A stretch of DNA of 64,000 bases from NCBI RefSeq assembly GCF_013122565.1, contig NZ_CP053258.1; one strand, written 5' to 3'. The stretch comes from Escherichia coli (GTDB taxonomy: Bacteria; Pseudomonadota; Gammaproteobacteria; Enterobacterales; Enterobacteriaceae). Each line of letters starts with the position of its first letter. Positions within the stretch are counted from its first letter, which is position 1. Positions 16,799 to 29,249 of this stretch are shown here, one piece after another. The notes beneath the pieces were generated by a model. It made no database searches. It was not told the DNA's origin and saw nothing but the letters and a program-made list of their open reading frames with translations. The translations under genes and the position numbers were made by a program.

Positions 16799-16891
16799 GG
16801 TGAGGTGGCCGAGAGGCTGAAGGCGCTCCCCTGCTAAGGGAGTATGCGGTTAAAAGCTGCATCCGGGGTTCGAATCCCCGCCTCACCGCCA
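16799..16891 (+). tRNA. serV: tRNA-Ser (anticodon GCU)
   Basis: 93-nt cloverleaf with long variable arm, anticodon loop CTGCTAA, 3' CCA encoded. Confidence 0.93.
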
Positions 16892-18841: not shown

Positions 18842-20425
<1,584 letters not shown>

Positions 20426-20433
20426 CAGAAAAG

Positions 20434-20506
20434 AAAAAGGCCACTCGTGAGTGGCCAAAATTTCATCTCTGAATTCAGGGATGATGATAACAAATGCGCG
20501 TCTTTC
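20434..20506 (-). ncRNA. micA: MicA (SraD) small regulatory RNA
   Basis: Minus-strand sequence GAAAGACGCGCATTTGTTATCATCATCCCTGAATTCAGAGATGAAATTTTGGCCACTCACGAGTGGCCTTTTT matches the MicA sequence as I recall it, including the intrinsic terminator; convergent with gshA and divergent from luxS. Confidence 0.85.
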
Positions 20507-20574
20507 ATATACTCAGACTCGCCTGGGAAGAAAGAGTTCAGAAAATTTTTAAAAAAATTACCGGAGGTGGCTAA

Positions 20575-21090
20575 ATGCCGTTGTTAGATAGCTTCACAGT
20601 CGATCATACCCGGATGGAAGCGCCTGCAGTTCGGGTGGCGAAAACAATGAACACCCCGCATGGCGACGCAATCACCGTGTTCGATCTGCGCTTCTGCGTG
20701 CCGAACAAAGAAGTGATGCCAGAAAGAGGGATCCATACCCTGGAGCACCTGTTTGCTGGTTTTATGCGTAACCATCTTAACGGTAATGGTGTAGAGATTA
20801 TCGATATCTCGCCAATGGGCTGCCGCACCGGTTTTTATATGAGTCTGATTGGTACGCCAGATGAGCAGCGTGTCGCTGATGCCTGGAAAGCGGCAATGGA
20901 AGACGTGCTGAAAGTGCAGGATCAGAATCAGATCCCGGAACTGAACGTCTACCAGTGTGGCACTTACCAGATGCACTCGTTGCAGGAAGCGCAGGATATT
21001 GCGCGTAGCATTCTGGAACGTGACGTGCGCATCAACAGCAACGAAGAACTGGCGCTGCCGAAAGAAAAGTTGCAGGAACTGCACATTTAG
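20575..21090 (+). CDS. luxS: S-ribosylhomocysteine lyase (AI-2 synthase)
   Basis: 171 aa with the HTLEHL metal-binding motif. Confidence 0.96.
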
Positions 21091-21107
21091 TCAGTGGAAC
21101 AAAAGAA

Positions 21108-21140
21108 GCCGGGCAGGTGACACCACCGCCCGGTTTTTTT
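21108..21140 (+). terminator. luxS intrinsic terminator
   Basis: gccgggcaggtgacaccaccgcccgg hairpin followed by ttttttt; the T-run overlaps the stop codon of the convergent minus-strand gene at 21139. Confidence 0.75.
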
Positions 21141-22251
21141 ACCTTTCAATCACCCGATACTCCACGCTATGTGCTTCATCAGGTTGAGGAACTTCCAGCC
21201 TTGAGGCCATCCGCAGCACGACCGCTTCAGGAACTGCATACTCGCGTCTGGCATTTTGCTGCTTCCATTGCGTCCATGGCACTTCCAGATAAACGATTTT
21301 TACTCGTGCGCCGTAAGCCGTAAACAGACTGATGAGCTGGCTACGCAGCTGGCGGGTAATGTTCGTTGCATTCCAGATGAACGGCTTTTTCTGGCGTAAA
21401 AAAACGCGTGCCTCTTCTTTTGCCTGTTGCACAATACGCCCGGTGGCGGTTTTGTCGTCCGGACTGGCATTGATTCGCCGCCGCATATCATCAAGGCTGA
21501 TAACGTCAATTCCCTGGCACTGTTCACTGATATAGCGATCTTTGCCCATACCCGGTAAGCCACACAGCAAAATAACCTCAAAAGGTTCAGCCCCCCAGGG
21601 AACAAAATCAGGAGAACTTTGCTCATGAGTCAGGTAGTGCCAGCGTGCGGAATCAGAAACGAACGGGCGCACTTTTCCCCAACACTGTTGCTCCTGGCAA
21701 AACAGCTCGAACAGATCGATGCGTTCCAGCATTGATTGCTGATCCGGGCTTTGGCGACCAAGCAGATCGGCACGAGCAAGCAAAGCGAGCAGACGCGTGT
21801 CGATGCGCATTGCAGCCGTGAGCAGCAAACGCTCCGGTTCCGGACGTTCCAGTAACCACAGCGGTAACCCATGCAGACGCACCAGCGCAACAATTTGCTC
21901 GCGTAGCACGAACGGCGTAGGGATATCGCGCCATAAAATTTGTCGGGCCGTCAATTCGCCCCGCCGAGCATGGCCAGGCGACTGAATACGTCCGTTTTCC
22001 TGCACGGTAGTGCTGCGCTTTTCAACATCATGCAATAACGCCGCCGCCCATAAAACTTCCTGCTGTTGAGCGGGGAGTTGCTGGAATTCTGGCAGAGTAA
22101 CGAGGGCGTTCAGCACCATTTCGGTATGCACGCCGACGTCGCCTTCACCATGATGCTCCGGGTCTTGTGGCGTGTGATGCATCTCCTCAACCCAACTGAA
22201 ACGCTGGAGTAGTGTCGACCAGCGTTTATCGTCGGTAAGCTGCCAAATCAT
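21139..22251 (-). CDS. two-domain protein: N-terminal HD-family phosphohydrolase fused to C-terminal P-loop polynucleotide-kinase-like domain (putative RNA end-healing enzyme)
   Basis: 370 aa. N-terminal half carries the HD signature H..H ([11 protein letters not shown]), HD (ALLHDVEKR), H (SPGHARRG), D (LARADLLGR). C-terminal half carries Walker [13 protein letters not shown], then SLDDMRRR and [10 protein letters not shown]...[13 protein letters not shown]...VPEAVVLRM, which parallels the T4 Pnk kinase-domain pattern as I recall it. Start overlaps the upstream gene by ATGA. Confidence 0.7.
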
Positions 22252-22955
22252 GACTGTTCTCCATAAGCGAACTCATGGGCCATCCGCGCCCGTTGCCAGT
22301 GTCGTTTCCAGTGCACGGTGGTTTTGACATGATTTTTGCGCACATACTTGAAGACGTTATGCGAAAAGTCAGCGACGGAAAACGCATCACGATTCCGGCT
22401 GACAATGCCTTCCAGCGTACAGGGTTGCCCGGTTTGTGTATCCCAGGGATCGAACGCGCCGCGCGCATTGGTCAGTGCCAGAAAATCACGTTGCCAGCTT
22501 TTTTCATCATTCCCCGGCTGCGGACCGGAGATTTCGGGAACGCAGGGGAAATCAAACAGAGCGGCGTAAAACTGCACCTCTTCCCAGCTCAGCCACATAT
22601 CCTGGCAGCGAACGGCAAACAGGTAAAAGTCCTGTTCCAGCGCGCGGTATTCAATGGAATGAACGGCGTAGAGATTTTCACCAAACAGTTCCAGATCGCC
22701 GAGATCGTTTTTCAGCAGTTGCCAACGCTGGCGAATTTTATAAGTCCATGCCGACTGCGTAGGCGCAGCATGGGAACGGGCAAACACGCCGTAGCGGTTA
22801 AGGCAGTTATTTTCGCCGTCGAGTTTTTCTGTGTGCACCAGTTGCGCAATGGCCTGTAAATCCTGCCAGTAATCGGCGTTAATGCGGTCATCGCTGGTGG
22901 TGCCAGGGGAGAAAGGATAATGCCAGGTTCTCCCGTATTTTCGTTGGGTATTCAT
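22248..22955 (-). CDS. small nucleotidyltransferase of the ATP-dependent RNA ligase type (putative RNA sealing enzyme)
   Basis: 235 aa. Candidate covalent-nucleotidyltransferase motifs: motif [10 protein letters not shown] (KxDGxN), motif IV-like TLEGIVSRN, motif V-like lysine pair [10 protein letters not shown]. Translationally coupled to the HD/kinase gene. Confidence 0.65.
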
Positions 22956-29154: not shown

Positions 29155-29249
29155 GGTTTGTAGGCATGATAAGACGCGCCAGCGTCGCATCAGGCATTGT
29201 GTACAGAGCGGCGGATGCGGCGAAAACGCCTTATCCGCCCGAATAAAAA
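29155..29249. repeat. REP/BIME cluster between proX and ygaY
   Basis: gtaggcatgataagacgcgccagcgtcgcatcaggc and gatgcggcgaaaacgccttatccg palindromic units. Confidence 0.6.

Follow-up and report, generated by a model that had tools for sequence, protein, structure and literature searches.

The 149-bp gap between gshA and luxS in the 64-kb window, by which we mean the whole stretch of E. coli DNA that was analysed, is almost certainly occupied by the canonical E. coli micA gene. With the same high confidence, the hairpin inside it, when read in the direction of gshA, is a leaky and condition-dependent end point and not a symmetric bidirectional intrinsic terminator. Within this analysis, these assignments rest on sequence identity, geometry, the promoter motif, conservation and the asymmetry of the tails that flank the hairpin; beyond it, they rest on published experiments on the identical K-12 sequence, which cover sigma-E dependence, luxS start sites, RNase III processing and RNA 3' ends. 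All of the expression data come from K-12, whose sequence at this element is identical to that of the window's strain. The micA arrangement is ordinary and already known, and nothing at the junction is new. Indeed, work on micA and its promoter, on its targets and on its overlap with luxS goes back to 2001. The locus nevertheless has value as a calibration: a real sRNA was recognised from raw sequence by the sequence-only reading that preceded this work, with coordinates that were nearly exact.

The micA gene and its conservation

The gshA gene (glutamate-cysteine ligase, 518 aa) occupies 18869..20425 on the plus strand, beginning with TTG and closing with the TGA stop codon at 20423..20425, as given by the open reading frame list and by the annotation of the homologous position in K-12 as gshA. 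It is followed on the same strand by luxS (S-ribosylhomocysteine lyase, 171 aa; 20575..21090, from the open reading frame list and the K-12 annotation), which is preceded at 20563..20567 (plus) by a putative Shine-Dalgarno sequence, GGAGG, assigned from the consensus and lying 7 nt before the ATG. These gene coordinates leave a gap at 20426..20574, and both its length of 149 bp and its content, an antisense MicA, are as the sequence-only reading had described them. By alignment, the whole spacer is 100% identical to that of E. coli K-12 MG1655 (NC_000913.3). Over 401 nt, the window differs from K-12 at 2 positions, both of them synonymous-type substitutions in the 3' end of the gshA coding sequence. 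In the K-12 annotation, micA (b4442) is 73 nt long and is separated from gshA by 8 nt and from luxS by 68 nt, and the geometry in the window is equal.

A whole-window Rfam scan found MicA (RF00078) on the minus strand at 20435..20506, a match that spans the complete model (positions 1-75 of 75) with E = 1.4e-11. The covariance-model score, which had been named beforehand as the test of the identification, was 83.9 bits against a gathering score of 41, leaving the identification unrefuted, and we found no evidence against the MicA identity of the element. On the basis of RF00078, b4442, the K-12 identity and Term-seq, we place the micA gene at 20431..20506 on the minus strand, with its 5' end at the G at 20506 and its 3' end at 20431 by Term-seq (76 nt), 20434 in RefSeq (73 nt, the length that had been claimed) or 20435 by Rfam (72 nt). 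The Term-seq end corresponds to K-12 2814877(+) and was the same in all three conditions (Adams et al., 2021; PMC7815308 supplementary file 1). Term-seq coordinates were mapped by window = 20506 - (K-12 coordinate - 2814802), and the layout of the Term-seq table (50 nt upstream, the 3' end, and 10 nt downstream) was compared with this coordinate map.

The RNA begins with a single-stranded region (nt 1-22; 20485..20506, minus) that both the Rfam model and the centroid fold leave unpaired and that contains the conserved core GACGCGCAUUUGUUAUCAUCAUCC. Stem-loop 1 follows at nt 23-44 (20463..20484, minus), as found in the Rfam consensus structure and in the MFE and centroid folds. The second stem-loop, at 20439..20456, is the MicA intrinsic terminator; it has the form GGCCACU-CGUG-AGUGGCC, with 7 bp of which 5 are G-C, its sequence is GGCCACTCGTGAGTGGCC, and it also lies in the gshA 3' UTR and in the long luxS leader. 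Both Rfam helices are reproduced by the centroid fold, which consists of an unpaired 5' region, a small stem-loop and the GC-rich terminator hairpin. On the minus strand the hairpin is followed by UUUUUCUUUU, and the terminator U-tract, UUUUUCUUUUCUG, at 20426..20438 fills the entire spacer between the gshA stop and the hairpin. The hairpin had been put 10 bp beyond the gshA stop, but 13 nt actually separate it from the stop codon, and these 13 nt are the MicA U-tail. A simple terminator scan of the minus strand returned the 7-bp stem with the tail TTTTTCTTTT; taken alone, this call is not significant (1 found against 0.7 expected in shuffles), whereas the covariance-model E-value is.

In the mechanism that these features suggest, RNA polymerase with sigma-E would initiate on the minus strand at 20506, using a promoter within the luxS leader. 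The product would be an RNA of 72-76 nt in which an unpaired targeting region at the 5' end is followed by one small stem-loop, a GC-rich terminator hairpin and a long U-tail. Judging from the literature, this RNA would then act together with Hfq, in trans, on the mRNA of ompA and on further envelope mRNAs. In K-12, where the sequence is identical, MicA is a sigma-E-dependent, Hfq-binding RNA of ~70 nt that represses ompA and other targets (PMC1851643, PMC4618604), and the core of its 5' region pairs with those targets (PMC4618604). Two short open reading frames in the junction were rejected, one on the plus strand (20447..20587, 46 aa) and one on the minus strand (20362..20508, 48 aa), as both overlap a well-supported ncRNA. 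Moreover, MicA cannot encode the 48-aa frame, because the ATG bases at 20508 and 20507 precede the mapped +1.

The junction is widely conserved. The 401-nt sequence was found in 5,422 of 5,426 complete E. coli genomes, and exact MicA nt 5-28 in the genomes of at least 120 species (one genome per species), drawn from Enterobacteriaceae, Yersiniaceae, Erwiniaceae, Hafniaceae and others. Among the matches listed, all 112 Enterobacterales loci from other species that had both flanks keep the order and orientation of gshA, antisense micA and luxS; a set of 113 junctions, also drawn from the matches listed, was used for tails, promoter and distances. Among these listed matches, the gap has a median length of 152 bp (range 147-260), the gshA stop lies 8-15 nt from the hairpin in 105 of 113 junctions, the micA +1 lies 67-92 nt from the luxS ATG in 102 of 113, and across Enterobacterales the stem GGCCAC/GUGGCC hardly varies. 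The Escherichia/Citrobacter/Salmonella group has U-A as its innermost pair, and the others have A-U. That the arrangement is conserved and known, as had been claimed, is thus borne out by the synteny in 112 of 112 loci, by the K-12 annotation and by the literature (PMC1851643, PMC2956633, PMC4618604). An enterobacterial-type gshA-micA-luxS locus with the exact MicA core is also found in record NZ_SZPQ01000001.1, which is titled Martelella alba, an alphaproteobacterium; this assembly is probably mislabelled or contaminated.

Several other features of the window were recorded alongside the junction. Between luxS and emrB lies a two-gene insertion (21139..22955, minus) that is absent from K-12 and that the sequence-only reading had called a candidate RNA repair operon. 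Its products are a 370-aa protein whose C-terminal domain is AAA_33 kinase-like (108 bits) and a 235-aa RNA_ligase (PF09414) protein (99 bits), with an overlap of 4 nt between the two genes. The insertion is carried by 999 of 5,426 complete E. coli genomes, and its best identity is only 98.1%, compared with 99.8-100% for the adjacent, K-12-like gshA-micA-luxS junction. With the insertion, the K-12 luxS terminator hairpin is replaced by another at ~21109..21133 (region ~21101..21141), which is flanked by AAAAGAAG and TTTTTTT and whose T-run overlaps the stop codon of the convergent 370-aa open reading frame. Unlike the asymmetric micA hairpin, this new luxS hairpin is symmetric, consisting of an A-tract, a hairpin and a T-tract. 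An array of one tRNA-Ser and four tRNA-Arg genes at 16799..17521 matches K-12, with Arg spacings of 275, 139 and 139 nt against 275, 139 and 275 nt in K-12. Other Rfam matches, at 29163..29240, 51538..51610 and 59381..59743, are naRNA4 (REP-type, 73.5 bits), a further tRNA and tmRNA (295.8 bits), respectively.

The micA promoter and the luxS transcripts

The micA promoter is of the sigma-E type and spans 20513..20539 on the minus strand, with a -35 element GAACTC at 20534..20539, a 16-bp spacer and a -10 element TCTGA at 20513..20517 that ends 6 nt upstream of the MicA 5' end, leaving a 6-bp discriminator to the +1. In a pattern search, the sigma-E-type motif GAACTN-N15-17-TCTGA occurred only once in the 64-kb window. 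Transcription of micA is strictly sigma-E dependent, from a promoter with a 16-bp spacer and a 6-bp discriminator (Udekwu and Wagner, 2007; PMC1851643). Upstream of the -35, in the luxS 5' UTR, the sequence has an AT-rich element (20540..20559, minus; agaaaatttttaaaaaaatt on the plus strand), and a conserved element of this kind has been noted for the micA promoter (PMC1851643). It reaches ~20559, 4 nt short of the luxS Shine-Dalgarno sequence. The -10, the -35 and the AT-rich element therefore all sit within the luxS leader, and the +1 at 20506 is 68 nt from the luxS ATG, in agreement with the earlier proposals that the micA 5' end is less than 70 bp from the luxS start and that its promoter overlaps the luxS 5' region.

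Across species, a strict regular expression, GAACT...TCTGA, matches just 51 of the 113 junctions. A position-wise profile of the same 113 junctions shows that the -35 'AAC' and the -10 'TCT.A' are kept throughout, and that the remaining junctions carry the variants AAACT or GAACC and TCTTA or TCTCA with unchanged spacing. The promoter is thus conserved, and the low count arises because the regular expression is too strict.

Although the overlap of the micA promoter with luxS had been called correctly, its extent had been understated, since the transcripts themselves overlap (PMC2956633). The distal luxS promoter, P1, lies inside the gshA coding sequence (20228..20243, plus), with a -10 region TCTATGAT at 20228..20235, including a C at -13, and a start site at the G at 20243, which is -332 from the luxS ATG. 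This position was taken from the 5'-RACE and fusion-primer sequences of Udekwu 2010 (PMC2956633), to which the window is identical, and the same study describes P1 as sigma-S-dependent. The proximal luxS mRNA 5' end, 'R3', derived from the same source, falls at 20492..20493 (plus) and overlaps the MicA 5' end by 14-15 nt: 14 nt in Udekwu 2010 itself, and 15 nt by De Lay and Gottesman 2009 as reported there (PMC2956633). A site resembling a sigma-70 promoter, ATGATA-18-TATACT at 20484..20513 (plus), was rejected; it fits neither published luxS 5' end, and 0.4 +/- 0.7 such sites are expected by chance.

The long luxS mRNA from -332 is complementary to MicA over its full length, and its conversion to the short form depends on MicA and RNase III, while an effect on LuxS protein was not detectable in Udekwu 2010 (PMC2956633). 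By this route, luxS transcripts from the sigma-S promoter in gshA, being fully complementary to MicA, would be cut with the participation of MicA and RNase III. We conclude that micA and luxS are a divergent, overlapping pair whose overlap extends beyond promoter and leader to the transcripts, and MicA is documented as a cis-antisense as well as a trans-acting RNA (PMC2956633; reviewed in PMC4618604). One consequence, known from Salmonella, is that deletions in the luxS 5' region also disturb micA, so that luxS mutant phenotypes can be MicA effects (PMC4618604).

The hairpin in the gshA direction

The sequence-only reading held that the micA hairpin can act bidirectionally. This was right insofar as the stem is shared and an RNA 3' end lies past it in M63 medium, but the plus strand lacks a U-tract, the 3' ends in LB lie elsewhere and luxS P1 transcripts read through. 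When folded, either strand forms an identical 7-bp GC-rich stem. What follows the hairpin on the plus strand is AAAATTTCAT / AAAAUUUCAU, which lacks a U-tract directly 3' of the stem. The terminator scan called the site on the minus strand only and made no plus-strand call, the plus strand failing because its tail is AAAATTTCAT. The same asymmetry holds across the set of junctions: the tail in the gshA direction starts with AAA and has 0-4 T in 8 nt in 113 of 113, while the micA-side tail has 8-9 U of 10 (A on the plus strand) in all 113. A U-tract that is found on the micA side alone in every species implies that selection has kept it on one side only. For micA the hairpin serves as a strong intrinsic terminator that works one way, and in the literature searched we found no published statement naming the gshA/micA hairpin a bidirectional terminator.

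Published Term-seq, which does not separate termination from processing, places the 3' end of gshA-direction (plus-strand) RNA at a different position in each of three growth conditions (PMC7815308 supplementary file 1). In M63 medium, the end is at 20461 (K-12 2814847(-)), 5 nt after the stem, with the RNA ending …GGCCAAAAU and 177,654 reads. In LB at OD 0.4, it falls in the hairpin loop at 20447 (K-12 2814861(-); 34,625 reads), and in LB at OD 2.0 it falls inside the gshA coding sequence at 20394 (K-12 2814914(-); 305,886 reads, 6 times the MicA count in that sample; supplementary files 1 and 3), a position that precedes the luxS ATG by 181 nt and the last base of the gshA stop codon by 31 nt. 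The M63 end, at 178k reads, exceeds MicA's own 123k, which shows that RNA in the gshA direction can end efficiently at the hairpin, and the term 'leaky' may hold only in some conditions. To call the hairpin 'shared', as the sequence-only reading did, is fair, as it marks a gshA-direction 3' end in at least one condition. On the other hand, luxS P1 transcripts from -332 run through the hairpin to luxS, so read-through from the gshA side is not blocked (PMC2956633). A Rho termination region is listed antisense to gshA, at window ~20063 minus (K-12 2815245 plus), ~370 nt downstream of the micA terminator (PMC7815308); this suggests a role for Rho in clearing read-through from micA, or other antisense transcription, at that point.

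The start of luxS P1 and the LB OD 2.0 end, mapped in independent studies, delimit a stretch of 152 nt within gshA (20243..20394, plus). In the predicted fold of the corresponding RNA, the first 11 nt would pair with nt 137-147 in an 11-bp helix, leaving a 5-nt tail. No compensatory changes in this helix were found in 51 species with co-linear gshA C-termini, where a mean of 7.6 of 11 pairs is kept and pairing decays with divergence. A discrete 152-nt RNA, which the two independently mapped ends had seemed to indicate, was therefore rejected: the helix gives no evidence for a selected structure, and the RNA is probably an E. coli-specific decay intermediate.

How, then, might the gshA-direction ends arise? 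In the reading that we prefer, the hairpin would act on this strand as a stable stem-loop without a U-tract, which gives a defined end 5 nt past the stem in minimal medium and which luxS P1 transcription passes; the ends would be produced by weak or assisted termination, or by trimming back to the hairpin. Processing alone is a real possibility, though we lean against it. Transcription would then pass the hairpin and end diffusely or by Rho later on, or RNase III would cut the MicA duplex, and 3'-5' exonucleases would trim the RNA back to stable structures. Precise 3' ends just past stable stem-loops that lack a U-tract are a signature of exonuclease-trimmed transcripts (PMC6061677). Furthermore, the ends at 20447, in the loop, and at 20394 cannot be intrinsic termination sites, the latter lies 5 nt after a predicted helix, and MicA- and RNase III-dependent cleavage of an overlapping RNA has been demonstrated (PMC2956633). 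Against processing alone, no Rho termination region is listed on the gshA strand in the junction or in luxS, although by the authors' own account such calls underestimate (PMC7815308 supplementary file 2). It is quite improbable, in contrast, that the hairpin is a true bidirectional intrinsic terminator, in which one stem-loop releases RNA polymerase without factors at the ends of both micA and gshA. The identical stem on both strands, an A-rich run upstream of it on the plus strand and the heavily populated M63 end 5 nt past it all fit such a terminator. So does the finding of Udekwu 2010 that there is no evidence for a gshA-luxS polycistronic mRNA (PMC2956633), which suggests that most gshA transcription stops at the hairpin. 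Yet the plus-strand tail failed the scan and has no U-tract, which holds in all 113 junctions, the LB ends lie away from the terminator position, and luxS P1 transcripts of >800 nt cross the hairpin (PMC2956633).

Overlapping bidirectional terminators between convergent genes were reportedly described by Ju et al. in 2019 by means of SEnd-seq. A collision-type terminator of this class, in which polymerases from gshA or luxS P1 meet those from micA at the stem-loop, and head-on and trailing collisions stop both, is in our view unlikely here. Several observations are compatible with it: gshA and micA are convergent with a stem-loop between them, the 3' ends in M63, at 20461 and 20431, make the RNAs of the two strands overlap around the hairpin by 31 nt, the junction has no called Rho region, and the gshA-direction ends vary with growth condition. 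The class itself is described as unlike intrinsic terminators, Rho-independent and in need of a stem-loop (bioRxiv 10.1101/2022.10.23.513370). However, the micA side is a textbook intrinsic terminator for which collision is unnecessary, and MicA reads of 143k, 50k and 123k stand against gshA-direction ends in the loop, the coding sequence and the hairpin, respectively, so that there is no simple tracking between the two. If collisions did operate, sigma-E activity would modulate the amount of gshA-direction transcription that ends at the hairpin.

A further idea, which we consider rather doubtful, is that the hairpin is a condition-dependent gate, such that sigma-E-driven micA transcription or the level of MicA decides the fate of transcription arriving from gshA or luxS P1. 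Incoming transcription could stop at the hairpin or continue into luxS, or its RNA could be cleaved within the MicA duplex. The shift of the published Term-seq 3' end among 20461, 20447 and 20394 over the three growth conditions is consistent with a gate, and we found no discussion of one at the gshA/micA hairpin in the literature searched. Were it true, envelope stress would be coupled to the 3' end and stability of gshA mRNA and to luxS leader usage.

Comparison with known systems

The element is the MicA (SraD) of K-12 (RF00078, b4442), with which it shares the spacer sequence, the flanks, the sigma-E promoter, the two stem-loops and the U-tail. The element itself shows no difference; the window's strain differs from K-12 by the substitutions at the gshA 3' end and by the two-gene insertion downstream of luxS. 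It likewise corresponds to the micA/luxS cis-antisense pair of Udekwu 2010 (PMC2956633), with which the P1 -10, the start site, the stretch complementary to MicA and the region of the proximal 5' end are sequence-identical. Given this identity, the published architecture should apply to the window.

In the gshA direction, the end right after a stem-loop without a U-tract resembles the stem-loop-protected 3' ends of Rho-terminated or trimmed transcripts of Dar and Sorek 2018 (PMC6061677). The resemblance is incomplete in that a Rho termination signal is not reported on the gshA strand here (PMC7815308 supplementary file 2). With the overlapping bidirectional terminators of Wang et al. (bioRxiv 10.1101/2022.10.23.513370), the junction shares a convergent gene pair, a single stem-loop and, in one condition, overlapping 3' ends. 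It differs from them in its two unlike sides: for micA, a canonical intrinsic terminator whose U-tract is long, and in the gshA direction a leaky element whose 3' end shifts with growth condition.
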